This document shows, one piece after another, positions 19,653-28,767 of a stretch of 36,575 nt of DNA. The stretch covers positions 1 through 36,575 of the forward strand of contig JBHIAV010000030.1 in NCBI GenBank assembly GCA_046758745.1, written 5' to 3'. The position numbers and the translations under genes were made by a program. The DNA is from Gemmatimonadota bacterium (GTDB taxonomy: Bacteria > Gemmatimonadota > Gemmatimonadetes > Palauibacterales > Palauibacteraceae). The notes beneath the pieces are model-generated. The model did no database searches, had not been told where the DNA came from, and saw only the letters and a program-made list of their open reading frames with translations. The stretch's first letter is position 1; each line of letters starts with the position of its first letter.

Positions 19653-22157
19653 ATGAAGCCGAGCGCCCAGCAGGAGAGGATCATCCCCCGCTACATCGAG
19701 CAGGAGATGCGCGAGTCGTTCATCGACTACTCGATGAGCGTGATCGTGCAGCGCGCTCTCCCGGACGCCCGGGACGGCCTCAAGCCCGTCCATCGGCGAA
19801 TACTGCACGCCATGCAGGAGCTCGGCCTTCGTCCCGAACGCGAGTACAAGAAGAGCGCGACGGTCGTCGGCGACGTGCTCGGCAAGTACCATCCGCACGG
19901 GGACGCGGCCGTGTACGACACCCTCGTGCGCATGGTGCAGGACTTCTCTCTCCGCTATCCGCTGATCGACGGGCAGGGGAACTTCGGCTCCATCGACGGG
20001 GACAGCGCGGCGGCGTATCGCTACACGGAGACCCGGCTGGCGCCGATCGCGCTCGAGCTGCTGGCCGACATCGACCTGGAGACGGTCGACTTCAGCCCGA
20101 ACTTCGACGGGCGGCTCACGGAGCCGAGCGTCCTCCCGGCACGGCTCCCGCACCTTCTCCTCAACGGCTCGGACGGCATCGCGGTCGGCATGGCGACGAA
20201 GATTCCGCCGCACAACCTCCGGGAGCTGTTGTCGGCCACGATCCACCTGGTGCGAGAGCCGGGCTGCGACGTGGAGGAGCTGATCGCACGCCTGCCCGGC
20301 CCTGATTTTCCGACCGGCGGTTACATCTGGGGGCGGGAGGGCGTCCAGGAGGCGTATCGCTCGGGTCGGGGACTGATCGAGATGCGCGCGCGAATGCATC
20401 TCGAGGAGGGAAGCTACGGGAAGAGCTCGCTCGTCGTGACCGAGCTTCCGTACCAGGTCAACAAGACCCGCATCATCGAGCAGATCACCAAGCTGGTTCG
20501 CAGCGGAAAGGGGGACGCGATCACCGATCTGCGCGACGAGTCGGACCGCGACGGCGTGCGTCTGGTGATCGAGCTCAAGCGAGATGCCGATGCACGCGAG
20601 CTGGTAAAGACGCTCTTCCGCAAGACCCAGCTTCGCTGCACCTTCGGCGTGATCATGCTCGCTCTGGTAGAGGGGCGACCGAAGCAGCTCCACCTCAAGG
20701 GGGCGCTCACCTGCTTCGTGCAGCACCGCCTCGAGGTGATCCGGCGACGGGCCGCTTTCGAGTTCGGACGCTCCGAGGAGCGCGCACACGTCATCGAGGG
20801 ACTCCTACTGGCGCTCGATCACATCGACCGCGTGATCGAGCTGATCCGGGGCTCGCGCAATCCGGCGAGCGCGTCCCGCAAGCTGCGGAGGGAGCTGAAG
20901 CTCAGCGAGCGCCAGGCGGAGGCGATCCTGGCGATGCGACTCTCGCGCCTCACGGCCCTGGAGCGTCGGAAGCTCGCCGACGAGCTGGAGGAGCTACGCG
21001 GCAGGATCCGCGAGCTGCGAGTGCTGCTGGACGACGAAGGCGCGCGACGGGAGCATCTGGAGCGCGAGCTCCGGGAGCTCATCGCGCGATACGGCGACGA
21101 CCGGCGAACCGAGCTTCTCGACGGGAGCCAGAAGTTTCCGCTTCCGGCCGGATCCGGCGCCGGAGCGTCGCTCGTACTGCTCAGCCGTCTCGGCTACATG
21201 AAGGCCGTTCCGGTGCGCGCCGGCTCGGGCATGGCGGGAGCGGATGCACTCGCCGCTCGCACGGGAGATTTCGTGAGGCAGTCGTTCCTGGCCCGCGGCT
21301 CCGATCTGCTTCTCGTATTCACCGCTCGTGGCACGGTGCACGGGATCACGGTAGGAGACCTCCCTCGCGGAACGCGGAGCTCTCGCGGGCGTTCGCTGGC
21401 GGAGCACGTCGGCCTCGCGCGAGGCGATCGCGTCGTCTCGGCCGTCCCCGTCGAGCGGTTCAATGCCGGCCGGTTCATCCTGATCGCTACGCGAACCGGA
21501 CACGTGAAGCGGACGGAGCTCGGCGAGTACGCGAACGCGCGTGCGGGAGGGATCATCGCGACCGGTCTCGCGGACGAGGACGAGGTCGTTGCGGCCATGC
21601 TGACGGATGGGATGGCGGAAGTCCTCCTGGCCTCACGAAGCGGACAGGTGATCCGCTTCGCGGAGTCCGAGATCCGTCCCATGGGTCGTACGGCACGCGG
21701 CGTGCAGGGAATCGATCTTGCGGACGGAGACGAAATCGTCGCCGCACTGACGCCGCGGCGCGACAGCGATCTGATCGCCGGAACAGCCGGAGGCTATGGA
21801 AAGCGAATTCCTTTCACCGAGTTCCGCGTGCAAGGGCGCGCCGGAAAAGGAACCGCGATGCTCCCCGAGCGGGAAACGACGGGCGAGCTGGTCGGACTGC
21901 TCGAGGTGCATCCAGGCGACCGGGTGATGTGGGAGCTGGAGTCGGGTGAGCTCGTGACGACGAGCGCCAGCGACATCCTCACGCGCGCCCGTCGGGACGT
22001 GAGCGTGCGCATCCGCGAGCTCCAGGATGCGGAAGGCGCGGTCGCAGCGGTCCATCCCCTCCGCGCCGCGCCGGAGCCGATCGCCACCTCGCACCGCGAC
22101 ATCGCGAGCGCGGAGCGTGGTGTCTCGCAAGGAGAGCTGGAGCTGGCGACCCGTTGA
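19653..22157 (+). CDS. Type IIA topoisomerase subunit A (GyrA family; GyrA-box absent, so ParC-like)
   Basis: [31 protein letters not shown] catalytic Tyr, PDFPTGG, C-terminal beta-pinwheel repeats. Confidence 0.92.
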
Positions 22158-22304
22158 GCCACGCCGATCTTCGACGCGGGTCTTCCCTCCTCCCGACGTC
22201 CGTGGCGTGATTCGACGCCAGCATACTTCTCGAGCGACGGACCTCACTCGCTTGAGCGACCCCGATCATTCCCTTGGGCCACCCCAGTCGAAAGGAGGAG
22301 GGTG

Positions 22305-22769
22305 ATGACCGAGCCACGGTACCTCTCCATGGTCCGCATCGAAAAGCTCACCGGTCCACATCGCAGGGCGTACATCGAACCTTTCGAGGATCCGCTCGAG
22401 TTCGGCGTGCATGGTGAGATCGCCGAGTTCTATGGCGCGACCACCGAACGACCCCTCCCGACGACACTCGACCACATCGTCGCCGCAGCCGGCGGGTGAC
22501 TGACCGGAACCCTGGGCGGAGCCCTGGGCGCCAGAGGAATTCCGAGCGACGATGGCCAGTTGCGCTCGCTCGTCGTCGGGGAGATCGGCGAGCGTGACGG
22601 TACACTCCGTATCATGCGCATCCGAGTCCGATACGAGATCGAGATCCCTGCGGGAAAGCGTTCGGAGGCCGAGCGGGCTCTCGAGCATCACGTGTCGCAC
22701 TGTCCGGTCGCGCAAACACTGACGCCGTGCGTCGAGATCGAATGGGAGGCGGAGATAAAGGAAGTGTGA
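22305..22769 (+). CDS. OsmC/Ohr-like protein with in-frame UGA (probable selenocysteine) at 22497-22499
   Basis: AAAGGAGG RBS. ORFs 22302-22499 and 22560-22769 share one frame, giving PTTLDHIVAAAGG-U-LTGTLGGAL...HCPVAQTL; UGA sits at the OsmC first-Cys position. Confidence 0.82.
22510..22528 (+). promoter_or_regulatory. Candidate bacterial SECIS hairpin
   Basis: CCCTGGGC-GGA-GCCCTGGG; G-starting apical loop 18 nt after the UGA. Confidence 0.55.
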
Positions 22770-22794
22770 GAGTCGCATCGTGCGCGCGATTGTC

Positions 22795-22822
22795 TTGCGT
22801 GCATCGAACGATTTCTTATAAT
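22795..22822 (+). promoter_or_regulatory. sigma70 promoter of the ATP-grasp/KamA operon
   Basis: TTGCGT (22795-22800), 16-bp spacer, perfect TATAAT (22817-22822) in an AT-rich intergenic region. Confidence 0.7.
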
Positions 22823-22885
22823 GAGTTGATTGTGTTCGTTTGCAGAGTCGTAAACGAACACGCAAACTTCGAAGTGAAAGGTGTA

Positions 22886-22924
22886 GTGTCCCGGCGCGTT
22901 GAGCATATTCGACTCGGACGATAG
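22886..22924 (+). CDS. Putative Arg-rich leader peptide MSRRVEHIRLGR
   Basis: AAAGG at 22877-22881, GTG start, four Arg codons (CGG, CGC, CGA, CGA); the stop lies in a hairpin loop just before a terminator. Confidence 0.4.
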   Translation: MSRRVEHIRLGR

Positions 22925-22931
22925 CTCCGAG

Positions 22932-22955
22932 CCGCCCGGCAGAGGCGGATTTTTT
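22932..22955 (+). terminator. Intrinsic terminator/attenuator in the operon leader
   Basis: CCGCC-CGGCAGA-GGCGG followed by A and six T, ~30 nt before ATG 22985. Confidence 0.65.
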
Positions 22956-22984
22956 GTTGTCCTCCACATTCCCGGAGGCCACGA

Positions 22985-24070
22985 ATGCGGATCGGGTTCG
23001 CGTTCAACCTCAAACCGGCACTCGCGGGAATGTCGCCTTCGGGATCGCCGCTCAGCTCGTCGAACGATGCAGGGCGCTCTCCGCCCGGCGAGGCGTCGTC
23101 CTCCTGCGTCAGTCAGCATGAGGCGGGCTTCGCCGAGTGGGACACCGAAGACACGATCGAAGCGGTGGCGGCCGCGCTCTCGCAGGTGGGCGACGTAGTG
23201 CTCCTCGAGGCTAACGGAAGCTTTCCCAACCGGCTCCGACGCGCGCGACCCGATCTGGTCTTCAACATGGCGGAGAGTCGGGGCGGGCGTGCCCGCGAGG
23301 CGCATGTGCCGGCCATCCTCGAGTACTTCGGTTTCCGGTACACGGGCAGTGACCCTCTCACCCTCGCCATCACACTGGACAAGGTGATGACCAAGACGGT
23401 CCTGGCGGCATCGGGGATTCGTACGCCGGCCTTTCGCGTTTGTGAGCCGGGCGTACGGCCGAAGAAGCGCGACGTGGATCCGCCGGTCATCGTCAAGCCC
23501 CTCCACGAGGGCTCGAGCATCGGCGTGCGGAACGGGTCGCTGTGTCATAGCTACGGCGAGGCCGTGAAGCGAGTCCGCGAGATCCATGCGTCGTGGGCGC
23601 AGCCGGCACTGATCGAGACCTTTCTGCCGGGCCGCGAGTTCACCTGCGCCCTCGTCGGCAACGGATCGGCGCTGCGAGCTTACCCGCTCGTGGAGATGGA
23701 CTTCGCCGCTTTCCCGGAGGACGCGAACCCGATCTACAGCTACGAGGCGAAATGGGTCTGGGACCGACCGTCGGATCCGCTGCCCGCGTTCCGCTGCCCG
23801 GCCCGCGTGGACGAGCGGCTCGAGCGGGAGATCACGCAGACGGCGATGGTCGCGTATCGCGCCCTCGGGTGCCGCGATTGGGCGCGGATCGATCTCCGTC
23901 TCGACGAGCGGGAGCGCGTGCACGTTCTCGAGGTGAACGCGCTGCCAGGCGTGCTGCCGGATCCGAATCAGAACTCTTCCTACCCCAAGGCGGCGCGTGC
24001 CGCCGGACTCGATTTCGACGGGACGATCCTCGCCGTCGTGGAGGCGGCTCGTGTCCGGTATCGAATCTGA
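22985..24070 (+). CDS. D-Ala-D-Ala ligase-like ATP-grasp protein 1
   Basis: DLVFNMAE, YTGS...LDK, IVKPLHEGSSIG, ETFLPGREFT, ARIDLR, LEVNALPG; lacks the GGxSxEH N-terminal motif of true Ddl. Confidence 0.85.
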   Translation: MRIGFAFNLKPALAGMSPSGSPLSSSNDAGRSPPGEASSSCVSQHEAGFAEWDTEDTIEAVAAALSQVGDVVLLEANGSFPNRLRRARPDLVFNMAESRGGRAREAHVPAILEYFGFRYTGSDPLTLAITLDKVMTKTVLAASGIRTPAFRVCEPGVRPKKRDVDPPVIVKPLHEGSSIGVRNGSLCHSYGEAVKRVREIHASWAQPALIETFLPGREFTCALVGNGSALRAYPLVEMDFAAFPEDANPIYSYEAKWVWDRPSDPLPAFRCPARVDERLEREITQTAMVAYRALGCRDWARIDLRLDERERVHVLEVNALPGVLPDPNQNSSYPKAARAAGLDFDGTILAVVEAARVRYRI

Positions 24071-24083
24071 GCCTCTCCCCCCG

Positions 24084-25622
24084 ATGACGGTCGGAGTGCT
24101 GTACGAGGAGATGCACCGCCCTCCTCGCCGACCGGAACGGCTCGCCGTGCTGGACGCGGTGGACGCGACCGAGGGTGCGCTGGCCGGCTTCGGTCATCGG
24201 GTTCTGCGACTGCCCGTTCGCGCCAGCGACTTCGAATGGCTGGAGAGGCTTCGGTCCGCCGACCTCGACCTCATCTTCAACCTGTGTGAAGGGGTCGATG
24301 GCGATGGGATCGGAGAGTTCCGGGTCAGCGCCGCCGCGGAGCTGCTCGGCATACCGATGACGGGGTGCAGCGCGGACGTGCTCTCGTTCGCGCTGCGCAA
24401 GGATCGGGTGAACGGGCTGCTCGTCGGCCGGCGGTTGCCGATCCCGCCGTACACGCTGGTCGAGCTGGGACGCGTGTCACTCGAGTGGAGCCATTTCCCG
24501 GCGATCGTAAAGCCGGCCGCGCAGGACGGCTCTCTCGGTATCGACGAGCAGGCGGTGGTGCAGACGCCGGCCGAGCTCCGCGCCAAGATCGATGAGCTGC
24601 TCCCGATCTTCGAGCTCCTTCTCGTACAGCGGTTCGTGGAAGGACGCGAGTTCAACGTCGGATTCGTCGGAACCTCGCGGCTGCCGCTGGCCGAGATCGA
24701 CTTCGCGTCGATGCCGGATGGGATGGCGAGGATCGTCTCGTACAGTGCGAAGTGGGAGAGTGGCTCTCCGGCCGACCGCGGCACCATCCCCATCTGCCCG
24801 GCCGAAGTGGAACCCGAGTTGGAGGCGCGGATCGTCGAGGTCGCGGAGAGGGCGTGGCTCGCCGTCTCCTCCGGCAGCGGATACGGGAGGGTCGACGTGC
24901 GCCTGGACGTCCACGGCAGACCGTACGTGCTGGAGGTGAATCCGAATCCCGACCTCACGCCGCAGGCCGGCCTGGCGCGAATGGCAGGTGTGGCGGGGCT
25001 CGATTATCCGGCCCTGGTGGCCGCCGTGTGTCGCGAAGCTTTCGGCGGCGCCGCGAACGACGAGGGGAGGGACAAGGAACCAGCGCCCGAGCCGCAGAGG
25101 CGGCGCGCGGGCACCGTTACCCTCGCGGCGGTCGAGGCGAGCCACCGCGAGCGAATCCGCCAGATCCTGGAGGACACGGGGGTGTTCCGGTACGACGAGG
25201 TCAACGTCGCGCTCGAGGTGCTCGACGTGTACCTCAGCCAGGCCGGTCAGACCGACTACTACATCATCGGAGCGTTCAGCGAGAAGGGGGAGCTCGTCGG
25301 TTATGCCTGTTATGGACCGACACCGTGCACGGTGGGCACGTGGGACCTCTACTGGATCGCCGTCGACCCGACGCATCACGGACAGGGCGTCGGGCGCAGG
25401 TTGCTCAACCGGGTCGAGAGCGAGATCGCCGCGCGAGACGGACGTATGATTCTTGCTGAGACGTCGTCCCAACCGAGCTACAGGCCGACCCGCGAGTTCT
25501 ACGCGCATCGCGGATACGAGATGGTTTCGCGCGTAATGGACTTCTACGCTCCCGGCGACGATCGGATGATCTTCGCCAAGCGCCTCTCTGGCCCCTTCGG
25601 AGGAGCCGGGTCCGATGAATGA
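24084..25622 (+). CDS. Ddl-like ATP-grasp protein 2 fused to a C-terminal GNAT acetyltransferase
   Basis: FNLCEG, IVKPAAQDGSLGI, GREFNV, GRVDVR, EVNPNPDL; after a linker, WDLYWIAVDPTHHGQGVGRRLL (acetyl-CoA motif A) and ETSS...FY. Start ATG 24084. Confidence 0.85.
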   Translation: MTVGVLYEEMHRPPRRPERLAVLDAVDATEGALAGFGHRVLRLPVRASDFEWLERLRSADLDLIFNLCEGVDGDGIGEFRVSAAAELLGIPMTGCSADVLSFALRKDRVNGLLVGRRLPIPPYTLVELGRVSLEWSHFPAIVKPAAQDGSLGIDEQAVVQTPAELRAKIDELLPIFELLLVQRFVEGREFNVGFVGTSRLPLAEIDFASMPDGMARIVSYSAKWESGSPADRGTIPICPAEVEPELEARIVEVAERAWLAVSSGSGYGRVDVRLDVHGRPYVLEVNPNPDLTPQAGLARMAGVAGLDYPALVAAVCREAFGGAANDEGRDKEPAPEPQRRRAGTVTLAAVEASHRERIRQILEDTGVFRYDEVNVALEVLDVYLSQAGQTDYYIIGAFSEKGELVGYACYGPTPCTVGTWDLYWIAVDPTHHGQGVGRRLLNRVESEIAARDGRMILAETSSQPSYRPTREFYAHRGYEMVSRVMDFYAPGDDRMIFAKRLSGPFGGAGSDE

Positions 25623-26877
25623 ATGGCAGCAGGTACTGAAAGGGAGCATCACGACGGTCGACGAGCTGGTTGAGCGGTTCGGCGAAGAGAACGTCGACCG
25701 CGAAGCGGTCCAGCAGGCGATCGACAACTTCAACCTGCGGATCACGCCAGAAGTCCTTCAGTTCATCGAACGGGCGGGGGATGCGTTCTGGAGACAATAC
25801 ATACCGACGGCCGAGGAACTGGACGTGCGCGACGGTCTGGTCGATGCCCTCTCCGAGGACGATGACTCTCCCGTACCCAACCTCACCCATCGGTACCCCG
25901 ATCGCGTGCTCTTCCTGGTCAGCCCGGTGTGCGCCACCTACTGCCGGTTCTGCACCCGCCGGCGCAAGGTGGGCGATCCGGAGAAGATTCCGCTCAACCA
26001 GTTCGACGCGGCGTTCGCATACCTACGAGAGCACACCGAGGTTCGGGATGTGATTCTGTCTGGCGGCGATCCCTTCATGCTGTCGGATCGTCGGGTCGAC
26101 TACTTTCTCAAGACCCTGCGGGCGATCCCGCACATCGAGATCATCCGCATCCACACCCGGATCCCCTCGCACCTCCCGGAGCGGGTCACGCCCGAGCTGT
26201 GCGCGATCCTCAAGAGATATCATCCGGTGTACGTGAACCTACACTTCAACCATCCGCTCGAGCTCACCCCGAAGGCGTGCGAGGCGCTGGCGCTGCTCGC
26301 CGATGCCGGTTGCCCGCTCGGCTCCCAGACCGTGCTGATGAAGGGGGTGAACGACGACCCGGCCGTGATGAAGGAGCTGATGCTGGAGCTGGTGAAGAAC
26401 CGCGTGCGTCCGTATTACCTGTACCAGGCGGACCAGATCGCCGGCGCCGAACACTTTCGCACCACGGTGGCGAAGGGGATCGAGATCATCCGCGCACTTC
26501 GTGGATGGACCTCGGGCCTCGCCGTGCCGCACTTCGTGATCGACGCACCGGGTGGCGGCGGGAAGATCCCGATCCTCCCGGAGTACGTCGAGAAGATGAC
26601 CGATGAAGAGGTCGTGGTCCGAAACTATGCCGGGAAGCGGTTCGTCTACCGTCAGGCGGCCCCCACGCAGGTGGCCGCCCCCGCCGTGGCCACGGCCGCC
26701 GCGAACGGCAAGCGGGTTGCCGCGAGCGCCGGCACGAAGGCATCGAAGGGCTCCTCGGCCCGTCGAAACGGCAAGAGCGGGGGAAAGAAGAGAAAGGTGA
26801 GCGGAACGAGGAACGGTCGGGCCGCGCACAGCCTCGCCGAAGCGGAGGAAGAGCTGGCTGTCTCCCGAAGCCGGTGA
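25615..26877 (+). CDS. KamA-family radical SAM/PLP 2,3-aminomutase (lysine 2,3-aminomutase-like)
   Basis: HRYPDRVL, CATYCRFCTRRR (CxxxCxxC), SGGDP, HFNHP, RPYYLYQAD, DAPGGGGK PLP lysine; overlaps the upstream gene. Confidence 0.92.
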   Translation: MNEWQQVLKGSITTVDELVERFGEENVDREAVQQAIDNFNLRITPEVLQFIERAGDAFWRQYIPTAEELDVRDGLVDALSEDDDSPVPNLTHRYPDRVLFLVSPVCATYCRFCTRRRKVGDPEKIPLNQFDAAFAYLREHTEVRDVILSGGDPFMLSDRRVDYFLKTLRAIPHIEIIRIHTRIPSHLPERVTPELCAILKRYHPVYVNLHFNHPLELTPKACEALALLADAGCPLGSQTVLMKGVNDDPAVMKELMLELVKNRVRPYYLYQADQIAGAEHFRTTVAKGIEIIRALRGWTSGLAVPHFVIDAPGGGGKIPILPEYVEKMTDEEVVVRNYAGKRFVYRQAAPTQVAAPAVATAAANGKRVAASAGTKASKGSSARRNGKSGGKKRKVSGTRNGRAAHSLAEAEEELAVSRSR

Positions 26878-27023
26878 GCGCCGCCCCGGCGCCCCTGGCC
26901 GCTCCGGCAGTCGGACTCCCACCCGCCGCTGCGGGCGGTCGGCTTCCTACCTGACCTGCCCGGGCAGCGGGCACCCCGCTCGTGACCGTTTGAGCCGGGC
27001 ACGCGCACGCGGGCTGCGGAGGT

Positions 27024-27077
27024 CGACGTGAGCGTGTTCGCTCCGAAGGCCGACGTGAGCCTGTTCGCTCCGGAGGC
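27024..27077 (+). repeat. 27-bp imperfect tandem duplication spanning a start codon
   Basis: CGACGTGAGCGTGTTCGCTCCGAAGGC / CGACGTGAGCCTGTTCGCTCCGGAGGC (2 mismatches). Confidence 0.8.
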
Positions 27078-28767
27078 CGAGGGACGTCGGTACCGGCAAG
27101 GCGTCTTTCTGCCCCTCGACGCCGCGACTTTACCGGAAGCGCCGGAGGATGACCGCTTCCCCGCTCGCGGATGGGGGCCGCCGTTCCGGCGCTGCGACGA
27201 AGTGCCGCGAGTGCCCCGGCTGAAGCATCTCGTCGGCCCTTCCATCATCGCCCTCGCCATGGGACTCGGTGCCGGCGAGTTCCTGTTGTGGCCGAACCTG
27301 GTCACCGTCAACGGCTACTCGATCTGGTGGCTGTTCTGGGTGGGCGTCCTGACGCAGTTCGTGGTGATCGGCGAGATCGAGCGCTGGACGATCGCCACCG
27401 GCGAGTCGGTCTTCGCGGGAATGGCCAGGCTCGATCGGCTCGCCTTCTGGCCCTGGTTCTTCCTCGCGGCCACTCTGGTGAGCTTCTTCTGGCCGGGATG
27501 GGCGTCACAGTCCGCCGAGTACGTAGGAGAGATCGTCGAGGCGGTAACCGGAGCGCGGGTCGCCTGGCAGCCCCTCGCCCTCCTCATGCTGGCCGTCATC
27601 TGGTTCGGCCTCGCCGTCTCGCGGATCGTGTACAACGCACTGGAACGCTTCGAGATCGCCCTCGTTCTCGGCTTCTTCCCGCTTCTGGGCGTGACGTTGA
27701 TCCTCGTCGGAGTTCTTCCTTCCGACGTCCTCGCGCTCCTCGAGGGCGCGGTGTCGATCGGCTCGGCTCCACCCGAGCTCCTCACGGGAGACCAGTTCCC
27801 CACCTTGCTCATCGCCGTCGCCTACGCCGGGTCGGGCGGCACCCTCCTGCTGGCCCAGTCCCTGTGGCTGCGTGACAAGGGGTTCGGCATGGCGGTGTAC
27901 CAGGGGCGCATCGCGGGAATCCGGGGCCGCAACGAGGAGATCAGCGAGACGGGCTTCGTCTTCGATCCGGAGGGCGGGCCCGGCGCGCTCGACCGTTTCC
28001 GGGCATGGGTACGGACCGCGCACCGGGAGCTCCTCGTCACCTTCGTGCTGCTGATCCTGGCCAGCGTGGTCATCACCAGCATGCTCGTCACATCGACCCT
28101 CGGCACGGGGAACTCGGAGCTGGCGGGCGACCTGAGCGGTATGGTAGCTCGGCAGTCCGCGGTGCTCGAGCGGATGGGCGGCACCTGGTTGAAGGTGGCG
28201 TTCCTGCTCGGCGGCTCGTTCGTGCTCTTCTCCACGCAGGTCGGGATCGTGGATACCGTCACCCGGATCGCGGGCAGCATCTTCTTCGAGCGGTACGGGC
28301 GCCGCACCCGTTTTTGGACCCTGAAGCGTACCTTCCTCTTCTTCCTCACCCTGTTCGTCCTCGCCTCGATGGCCATCATCACGGTCTCCTGGGTCGGTGA
28401 GAGGTCGGTCGAACGGCTACAGCCGAACTTTCTCGTCCTCATCGCCGGCCCCTTCACCATTGCGAGCATGTATCTGTTCGCCATGGTGGTCGGTGTGGTG
28501 AACGTGCGGCGGCTTCCGCCGGCGCTGAGACCGGCCGCGTGGCGACGCTGGGCGATGGTGTGGGCGGCCGCTCTGTGGGGCTGGTTCACGGCCGAGCAGC
28601 TGAGCCGCGTGGTGCTGGCACGCCTCGGCGCTCCTACAGAGGTCATCGAATCCGTTGCCCTCGAGCCGGTACGCACCATCCTGTACGGCGCCTGGCTCCT
28701 CTCCCTCGCCTGGTTCGGCTGGCGGATCCTCGGCCCCGGCGTGCGCTCGACGAAGCGGCCGGCTTGA
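27028..28767 (+). CDS. Nramp-like/APC-superfamily membrane transporter
   Basis: VGPSIIALAMGLGAGEFLLWP, ERWTIATGES, AYAGSGG; about 12 hydrophobic segments; GGAGG RBS. Confidence 0.8.
   Translation: MSVFAPKADVSLFAPEAEGRRYRQGVFLPLDAATLPEAPEDDRFPARGWGPPFRRCDEVPRVPRLKHLVGPSIIALAMGLGAGEFLLWPNLVTVNGYSIWWLFWVGVLTQFVVIGEIERWTIATGESVFAGMARLDRLAFWPWFFLAATLVSFFWPGWASQSAEYVGEIVEAVTGARVAWQPLALLMLAVIWFGLAVSRIVYNALERFEIALVLGFFPLLGVTLILVGVLPSDVLALLEGAVSIGSAPPELLTGDQFPTLLIAVAYAGSGGTLLLAQSLWLRDKGFGMAVYQGRIAGIRGRNEEISETGFVFDPEGGPGALDRFRAWVRTAHRELLVTFVLLILASVVITSMLVTSTLGTGNSELAGDLSGMVARQSAVLERMGGTWLKVAFLLGGSFVLFSTQVGIVDTVTRIAGSIFFERYGRRTRFWTLKRTFLFFLTLFVLASMAIITVSWVGERSVERLQPNFLVLIAGPFTIASMYLFAMVVGVVNVRRLPPALRPAAWRRWAMVWAAALWGWFTAEQLSRVVLARLGAPTEVIESVALEPVRTILYGAWLLSLAWFGWRILGPGVRSTKRPA

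Follow-up and report, generated by a model that had tools for sequence, protein, structure and literature searches.

Two Ddl-derived ATP-grasp ligases, a GNAT acetyltransferase and a KamA-family aminomutase form a conserved bacterial cassette that may make a small beta-lysine amide

The DNA considered here, called the window, is a stretch of 36,575 nucleotides (nt) from a Gemmatimonadota bacterium of the family Palauibacteraceae (assembly GCA_046758745.1, contig JBHIAV010000030.1, positions 1 to 36,575). A search for open reading frames (ORFs) finds three co-directional ORFs at 22985-26877, where a first-pass annotation, made from the sequence and its ORFs, had placed a coupled operon encoding a Ddl-like ligase (Lig1), a second Ddl-like ligase (Lig2) fused to a GNAT acetyltransferase, and a KamA homologue. 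The operon is indeed in place at these coordinates, its genes being 13 nt apart or overlapping. These genes, called the cassette below, and the candidate leader that precedes them are as follows (aa, amino acids; RBS, ribosome-binding site; PLP, pyridoxal phosphate).

22826-22984, plus strand: candidate regulatory leader, with a terminator and an anti-RBS hairpin; putative function.

22985-24070, plus strand: Lig1, 361 aa, Ddl-like ATP-grasp ligase (Dala_Dala_lig_C, PF07478, 3.1e-31).

24084-25622, plus strand: Lig2-GNAT, 512 aa from the ATG at 24084 (Dala_Dala_lig_C 2.3e-24; GNAT domain Acetyltransf_1 1.8e-12).

25615-26877, plus strand: KamA-family radical-SAM/PLP lysine 2,3-aminomutase, 420 aa (Pfam Radical_SAM and LAM_C).

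The stop codon of Lig1 (24068-24070) is followed 13 nt later by the ATG of Lig2-GNAT at 24084, and the ATG of KamA at 25615 overlaps the stop of Lig2-GNAT by 8 nt. The Lig2-GNAT frame was first listed as a protein of 541 aa running from a GTG at 23997, within Lig1, to 25622, with PF07478 at residues 162-343 and GNAT at residues 416-507 according to Pfam. Its true start is probably the ATG at 24084, because the N-terminus of the relatives, the database gene call (P0244, 512 aa) and the local sequence agree on it. The protein consists of a Ddl-like ATP-grasp region (about 24084-25100), a linker and the GNAT domain (about 25150-25580). The G+C content of the window is about 68%, and the G+C content at third codon positions of the three cassette ORFs (0.81-0.83) is the one usually found in the coding frames of the window.

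The closest solved structures of the two ligases are Ddl enzymes (1.8e-41), and the cassette ligases share with the Ddl/Van family its fold and its complete ATP/Mg catalytic set. However, both score well under the cut-offs of all the curated Ddl/Van models. Thus, Lig1 reaches 135.9 bits and Lig2 101.5 bits on TIGR01205 (cut-off 245.65), and 180 and 111.1 bits, respectively, on NF002378 (cut-off 243). The alignment of E. coli DdlB with 81 Lig1 and 70 Lig2 sequences allowed comparison of individual residues. Both ligases look catalytically competent, since the ATP/Mg catalytic residues of DdlB are invariant: K97, K144, E187, K215, R255, D257 and N272 are found in all Lig1 (81/81) and all Lig2 (70/70). 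At the position of E270, a Glu is present in 81 of the 81 Lig1 and in 56 of the 70 Lig2, the 14 others having an Asp. In contrast, substrate residues are altered. We take E15 of the GG.S.E stretch, S150, Y216 and S281/L282 of DdlB to be involved in D-Ala binding. In every member of both ligase groups, H63 is replaced by Glu and Y216 by Trp. Lig1 retains S150, G276 and S281, with a Cys instead of L282 in 77 of 81 sequences. Lig2 shows Ala or Gly instead of S150, Asp instead of G276 (68/70), Ala instead of S281 (63/70) and Gly instead of L282 (66/70). The first-pass annotation had reported the loss of the canonical GGxSxEH motif from both ligases. This is right for the GG and the S of the N-terminal GG.S.E stretch, which are missing from both in the alignment, and less clear for the Glu, of which the invariant AEWD of Lig1 (E51) is a possible counterpart in an alignment that is ambiguous by one column. 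The N-terminus of Lig2 shows no conservation.

In a tree of 42 ligase sequences, the six true Ddl (those of E. coli and of five relatives of the window's genome) are cut off by a branch with a support of 100 from Lig1, Lig2 and further stand-alone paralogues, while Lig1 forms a single group (support 93). Furthermore, the cassette ligases are not part of a cell-wall gene cluster, and the five relatives, four of which are carriers of the cassette, all encode elsewhere in their genome a canonical Ddl scoring above the cut-off (274-341 bits). Judged by their sequences, Lig1 and Lig2 are derived from Ddl but are not Ddl; the sub-cut-off scores, the changed substrate residues, the separate clade and the presence of a true Ddl in the relatives all agree with the first-pass annotation, whose proposal would fall if they made D-Ala-D-Ala.

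A third Ddl-like ATP-grasp paralogue is encoded outside the cassette in the window's genome (G000, contig C32, 27685-30060; L109, 7685-10060) and groups with the Lig2-like clade. The gene located 3' of it encodes zinc ribbons and a Peptidase_Mx metallopeptidase domain. Stand-alone paralogues similar to this one are also found in the relatives.

The aminomutase passes the model TIGR00238 (288.2 bits, cut-off 199.2). The highest score on a more narrowly named model is obtained with that of AblA (TIGR03820), with 446 bits for a cut-off of 525.4 and a match covering profile positions 8-362 of 417. The models of glutamate 2,3-aminomutase (374 bits, cut-off 650), arginine 2,3-aminomutase (309 bits, cut-off 600) and EpmB (233.2 bits, cut-off 369.3) come next. 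The ranking of the models is the same for eight cassette KamAs of other phyla, AblA being first with 437-513 bits. The solved Clostridium enzyme 2A5H matches the KamA of the window at 8.3e-113. The CxxxCxxC Fe-S cysteines, R134, D293, D330 and the PLP lysine K337 (2A5H numbering) are kept in 69 of 69 cassette KamAs. We take D293 and D330 to hold the epsilon-ammonium group and R134 the carboxylate; lysine would fit as the substrate because the two Asp are kept. These Asp align with the acidic residues that the first-pass annotation had picked out in YQAD and VIDAPGGGGK. This annotation had left the choice between beta-Lys and beta-Arg as the product; the pocket, which appears to be of the lysine type, and the score on the AblA model (446 versus 309 bits on the arginine model) favour beta-Lys.

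The cassette KamAs have lost the C-terminal zinc-cysteine cluster. The zinc ligand C268 is replaced by an Asp in the window, as in 55 of the 69 cassette KamAs in all, and the tail of the window protein has zero cysteines. The zinc part is replaced by basic low-complexity tails of 40-130 residues, rich in Lys, Arg, Gly and Asn, not only in the window (26560-26877) but also in L001, L005, L012, L026, L030 and other loci belonging to several phyla.

The GNAT domain (ACETYLTRANSFERASE) does not match the AblB model TIGR03827 in the window nor in six other cassettes, and a search for AblB with this model in the window's genome found none. Its best named family is RimI (TIGR01575, cut-off 86.4), with 31.8 bits for the window and 37-52 bits for the six other cassette GNATs. 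A much closer relative is the PDB entry 2R7H, which matches the window GNAT at orthologue level (121 bits, 4.8e-34, about 140 residues). This protein differs from the GNAT of the window by being a stand-alone protein of 177 aa instead of being fused to Lig2. Its name, "Putative D-alanine N-acetyltransferase of GNAT family", seems to have been guessed from gene neighbours, and a literature search on the structure code surfaced no functional study. A figure legend lists it as a structural neighbour of RimI and of the tRNA-acetylating toxin TacT.

Besides the window, Lig2 and GNAT are fused in two of the 59 loci where both were matched (L001 and L032). Fusions were also sought among long database proteins matching the GNAT region, of which the best 120 were taken. 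Ninety-two of them carry a Ddl domain and belong to several phyla, so that the Lig2-GNAT fusion arose or spread widely. The others carry an HDAC-family domain (PF00850; 27 proteins of about 750 aa) or a SET domain (one protein). In P0291, which is of the HDAC type, a weak N-terminal GNAT-like region is followed by the HDAC-family domain (266-570) and by the cassette GNAT (600-750). The solved structures nearest to this HDAC domain are those of acetylpolyamine amidohydrolases (APAHs), first 6PHR (6e-76), then 9GKZ, 3MEN and 3Q9B. A Lig1-Lig2 fusion was found in none of 71 loci; the protein P0014 (607 aa), made of Lig1 and an N-terminally cut Lig2, was treated as unreliable, and its C-terminal end is what we take to be a known assembly-artefact peptide.

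L038 and L076 have an unfused HDAC-family gene, for a protein of 575 aa, beside the cassette. Of 251 genomes of Desulfobacterota, the phylum to which L038 belongs, 16 encode this protein or its fused form. Among ten loci examined in this phylum, six have the 575-aa gene inside a KamA/ligase/ligase/GNAT cluster, whose gene order varies, and four have it alone. APAHs such as 6PHR and 3Q9B are the closest known relatives of the deacetylase domain linked or fused to these cassettes, although the 575-aa protein has an additional N-terminal GNAT-like domain. No such gene is present in the window or in the remaining 78 of the best 80 loci described below, and the two ordinary PF00850 genes of the window's genome are located outside the cassette. 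The association of an APAH-like gene with the cassette or with its GNAT in Desulfobacterota suggests that the acetyl group would be carried by an alkyl amine and would be removable.

A pattern scan made with the Lig1 alignment on one genome per species led to the confirmation of 595 of 600 among the matches listed, i.e., at least 595 loci, and the four parts (Lig1, Lig2, GNAT and KamA) were mapped in the best 80 of these. All four are found together in 58 of the 80 loci, as Lig-Lig-GNAT-KamA in 54 of them and in another order or as split matches in four. Six other loci are cut by a contig end, and the ligases accompany KamA in 67 of the 74 loci that are not. The seven partial but uncut loci include three from Nitrospinota (L011, L021 and L023) with KamA and Lig1 alone, which suggests a beta-Lys/Lig1 core. 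L008 and L047 have only Lig1 and Lig2, L013 has only Lig1 and L078 lacks KamA. The second ligase and KamA are located on another contig in the L013 genome (Wallbacteria), and KamA is encoded elsewhere in the L078 genome. In L008, Lig1 and Lig2 are intact (376 aa each) and are followed by a 2-oxoacid:ferredoxin oxidoreductase gene, with no GNAT nearby.

For Lig1, Lig2 and KamA, the distances between pairs of loci in one tree correlate with those in the others (r 0.77-0.84, a value reached in 0 of 999 permutations), a correlation to which shared species history contributes. The Lig1 tree mostly tracks phyla and includes few cross-phylum placements, for example Rokubacteria inside Gemmatimonadota; in it, the sequence from the window is placed with that of L001 among the Gemmatimonadota. 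The four-part set is conserved in loci with at least 14 phylum labels. The cassette is inherited as one conserved functional unit. The first-pass annotation had taken the genes for such a unit and had noted that its proposal would fall if they did not co-occur in other genomes; they do so in most of the loci mapped. Within the Bacteroidota/Ignavibacteria clade of the tree, the Lig1 of L058, which comes from a metagenome-assembled genome (MAG) titled Synechococcus sp., has a near-identical counterpart in an Ignavibacteria MAG (branch lengths 0.047 and 0.048); L058 is probably a mis-binned contig.

Among 40 relatives of the bacterium, 14 of the 16 from the sister family have Lig1, compared with 2 of the 24 from the family of the bacterium itself; the cassette is therefore accessory and not core. 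The genes that flank the cassette differ between phyla: the commonest neighbour family is found in 18 of the 80 loci, and recurrent neighbours encode ThyX, RecG, an FAD oxidase, a dehydroquinate (DHQ) synthase and EF-G. The neighbour survey of the 80 loci revealed no transporter, regulator or carrier gene common across phyla. DNA of the window is present in hydrothermal-vent metagenome runs from one study, from which the window may originate. Full-text literature searching returned no paper on the Lig-Lig-GNAT-KamA combination, in agreement with the first-pass annotation, which knew of no assigned product for it. The cassette is a conserved combination of known enzyme families without a characterised product.

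Between an OsmC-like ORF and Lig1, at about 22811-22816, lies a TATAAT box that matches the consensus perfectly and has a weak -35; an automatic promoter scan called no promoter. The leader holds a 12-bp hairpin and then an intrinsic terminator (stem 22932-22948 and T-run), which is the sole terminator-like site in 22100-27100. A hairpin pairing CCUCC with the GGAGG of the RBS ends 3 nt before the ATG of Lig1. The RNA of this 165-nt leader stretch folds at -59.7 kcal/mol (z -2.67; 2 of 200 shuffles as stable). L001 has the same layout of terminator and hairpin masking the Shine-Dalgarno sequence, with a different sequence between promoter and terminator. A terminator-like hairpin located 21-36 nt before the Lig1 start was found in 8 of 78 upstream regions, including that of the window, all from Gemmatimonadota. 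Rfam scans of the window, of the leader and of seven related loci revealed no family. The leader looks like an attenuator or the expression platform of a riboswitch, and expression of the cassette seems here to be gated by the leader RNA through its terminator and its RBS-masking hairpin.

Other cassettes are preceded by another type of signal. Of 78 loci, 26 (including L021, L022, L026, L028, L035-L037, L041, L044, L046 and L048), from Bacteroidota, Ignavibacteria, Acidobacteriota, Nitrospinota and Planctomycetota, have in front of the cassette a sigma-70 promoter that is close to perfect (CTTGACAA, about 17 nt, TATATT/TATAAT; -35 box CTTGACA). The CTTGACA boxes would fit a product made at high flux. 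In Bacteroidota and Ignavibacteria, this promoter is followed by leaders of 100-190 nt that have GTTCATTGA and TGAAAGG motifs in common. In the sister family, the region about 60-100 nt upstream of Lig1 holds a conserved stretch starting with ATGAACTCC or ATGGACTCC, with AGGAGG and CAATAGGAAG (L084-L092, L002, L003, L007, L008, L010 and L018). A riboswitch reading of this "CNATAGGAAG" stretch was dropped, its changes being mostly at third codon positions. For the same reason, the stretch may be a short upstream ORF, or else the start of Lig1 may be misplaced. Several sister-family genomes have no obvious in-frame ATG for Lig1, and that of L008 starts with TTG.

Upstream of the cassette, the window encodes Rho, a small ORF, a GyrA/ParC-type protein and then the OsmC-like ORF (22305-22769, plus strand). 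The latter is interrupted by a single in-frame TGA at codon 65 and matches Pfam OsmC on read-through (6.3e-12). The context of this TGA is like that which we take to surround the first conserved Cys of OsmC/Ohr proteins, and the window's genome encodes SelA (523 bits, above the cut-off). The ORF may encode a selenocysteine-containing OsmC or be a pseudogene. A search for a selenocysteine insertion sequence element gave no indication of one, since the folding of the 64 nt that start with this TGA was not more stable than that of shuffled sequences (z 0.01). Downstream, a gene encoding an Nramp-family transporter (27028-28767, plus strand) lies 150 nt 3' of KamA, with no terminator between them. 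This neighbour is common only to the window and its closest relative, L001, and is absent from more distant loci.

The reading that we prefer, and to which we give a probability of about 0.55, is that the cassette is a self-contained operon making a small beta-lysine-containing amide compound. From the enzyme classes, the intact residues and the co-inheritance described above, we infer as follows which substrates are used, in what order the reactions take place, where the acetyl group is put and what the compound is for. KamA would convert L-lysine into beta-lysine, the committed building block. Lig1 and Lig2 would each make one ATP-dependent amide bond via an acyl-phosphate, and the GNAT, fused here to Lig2, would transfer an acetyl group onto a free amine. 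Lig1 would be the enzyme that handles beta-lysine directly and joins it to a partner bearing a carboxylate (an amino acid), since it is the sole ligase found with KamA in Nitrospinota and retains S281, G276 and R255, with which Ddl binds the carboxylate of the incoming amino acid. Its new invariant acidic residues (the Glu at the H63 position and AEWD) could hold a diamine. Lig2 and GNAT would constitute a second module acylating an alkyl amine without an adjacent carboxylate, for example the epsilon- or beta-amine of the beta-lysyl group, because Lig2 no longer has the serine that binds the carboxylate and has acquired an Asp. The acetyl, which nine of the 80 loci seem to do without, could be a protecting or switch group instead of the last modification, and an APAH-like enzyme could remove it in Desulfobacterota. 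As a matter of general chemical reasoning, blocking the epsilon-amine before activation of the carboxylate would prevent formation of a lactam.

Since no exporter goes with the cassette, the product is probably intracellular. As to its role, our best guesses are an osmolyte or stress solute and a polyamine-like cation; within the small-molecule reading, a role as osmolyte or stress solute seems less likely than not. The other role considered in the first-pass annotation, that of envelope modifier, is supported by no result. A related combination of activities exists in the Ngg/AsnO pathway, which makes N-acetylglutaminylglutamine amide (NAGGN), a small cytoplasmic solute, Ngg consisting of a GNAT and an ATP-grasp ligase. 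Going by this general description of Ngg only, the likeness lies in the presence of both activities in one protein, acetylation being combined with formation of a peptide bond. The cassette differs by the lack of an amidotransferase partner, by its radical-SAM aminomutase and second ligase, and by the Ddl type of its ligases.

Several observations weigh against this proposal. Nine of the 80 loci harbour the two ligases and KamA without GNAT (five from Rokubacteria/Methylomirabilota and four from Gemmatimonadaceae), and the GNAT profile has no match in the gap between Lig2 and KamA in these nine loci; acetylation is therefore not universal. The complete chromosome of 3.0 Mb that carries L008 (G041) has no KamA-family gene at E <= 1e-20, so an internal supply of beta-lysine may not be strictly required by the ligases. 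The Lys/Arg-rich tails of the KamAs are not explained by the model. The resemblance of the GNAT to RimI and TacT is equally compatible with acetylation of a small molecule and of a macromolecular alpha-amine. Most carriers come from soil and groundwater according to their record titles, and not from salty habitats, which weakens the osmolyte reading. Lastly, a search of the window's assembly, with a completeness of 87.4%, revealed no canonical Ddl above the cut-off, the best score being that of Lig1 itself (135.8 bits); given this completeness, the missing Ddl is read as a gap and remains a caveat.

Among the other explanations, the one that survives best, although it seems rather unlikely, is the modification of a macromolecule or the synthesis of a polymer. 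The cassette would then carry out beta-lysylation or peptide-tailing of a protein (in the manner of RimK, EpmA or LysX) or make a poly-beta-lysine or a cyanophycin-like polyamide, the GNAT capping an N-terminal amine. Two ligases could indeed correspond to backbone and side chain, as we take to be the case in cyanophycin synthetase. The ligases are, however, of the Ddl type and not of the RimK or LysX type, and no substrate or carrier gene is conserved beside the cassette. The proximity of the GNAT to RimI-type N-alpha-acetyltransferases, the legend listing 2R7H beside RimI and TacT, and the basic tails of many cassette KamAs would suit this explanation, as would the housekeeping neighbours and the lack of a transporter travelling with the cassette. 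A core translation role is at odds with the presence of the cassette in 2 of 24 genomes of the family, and the deacetylase linked to it is of the type acting on small acetylpolyamines.

Beta-lysine is found in streptothricin-type antibiotics, and their acetyltransferases act on its beta-amine. Considering this precedent, the patchy distribution of the cassette and the pairing of an acetylating enzyme with a deacetylating one, the product could be a secreted or specialised natural product, such as a beta-lysine antibiotic-like peptide or a chelator, with the GNAT providing self-protection as streptothricin acetyltransferases do. We consider this quite improbable, since no exporter, regulator, nonribosomal peptide synthetase or tailoring gene recurs beside the cassette, which lies among housekeeping genes. 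Furthermore, its trees mostly track phyla, unlike those expected from a mobile biosynthetic island, and its four parts are kept across all the phylum labels mentioned above.

An even less probable explanation is a plain N-epsilon-acetyl-beta-lysine osmolyte pathway, analogous to AblA/AblB, with ligases serving an unrelated purpose. As in AblA/AblB, a KamA-type aminomutase is found beside a GNAT in one operon, and AblA is the top named model, in the window as in the eight KamAs of other phyla. In Desulfuromonadales, an order to which some cassette carriers belong, a passage of a Pelobacter genome paper reports an ablA/ablB pair annotated as an N-acetyl-beta-lysine pathway, and this pair may or may not be the cassette. 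However, the cassette KamA scores under the cut-off of the AblA model and is without the zinc-cysteine part at its C-terminus, and the small RimI-like GNAT is not matched by the AblB model. The ligases that the cassette has in addition do not look unrelated: they accompany KamA in 67 of 74 uncut loci and have an evolutionary history in common with it and, in the window as in 92 of the best 120 database proteins, one of them forms a single protein with the GNAT. That the ligases are simply the cell-wall D-Ala-D-Ala ligases of the organism, as the source annotation names them and as the lack of a canonical Ddl in its incomplete assembly would allow, is hardly credible in view of their scores far under the Ddl cut-offs, the replacement of Y216 by Trp and of H63 by Glu in all members, their separate clade and the true Ddl of all five relatives, four of which are cassette carriers.

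Returning to a small beta-lysine amide as the product, a bolder version of this reading can be put forward tentatively. The cassette could define a widespread and as yet undescribed class of beta-lysine oligo-amides, built by two Ddl-derived ligases with an acetyl protecting-group logic (put on by the GNAT, taken off by an APAH-type enzyme in cassettes that encode one). The product, free or acetylated, might serve hundreds of bacteria from soil, sediment and vents as a stress solute or in place of polyamines, and the new leader RNA found here might sense the product or stress.

If the preferred reading is true, bacteria from many phyla, amounting to at least several hundred species, have the genes for a metabolite that is as yet undescribed. 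To our knowledge, beta-lysine chemistry so far comprises only N-acetyl-beta-lysine, the modification of EF-P and streptothricin-type antibiotics, and the cassette would add a new branch to it. Under the same reading, the many proteins of the clade annotated as "D-alanine--D-alanine ligase", as well as the solved GNAT 2R7H, would receive their first assigned function, and the routine annotation of metagenomes, in which the cassette genes are taken to belong to the cell wall or to AblA/AblB, would be corrected. Given its small size, the operon lends itself to direct expression and assay.

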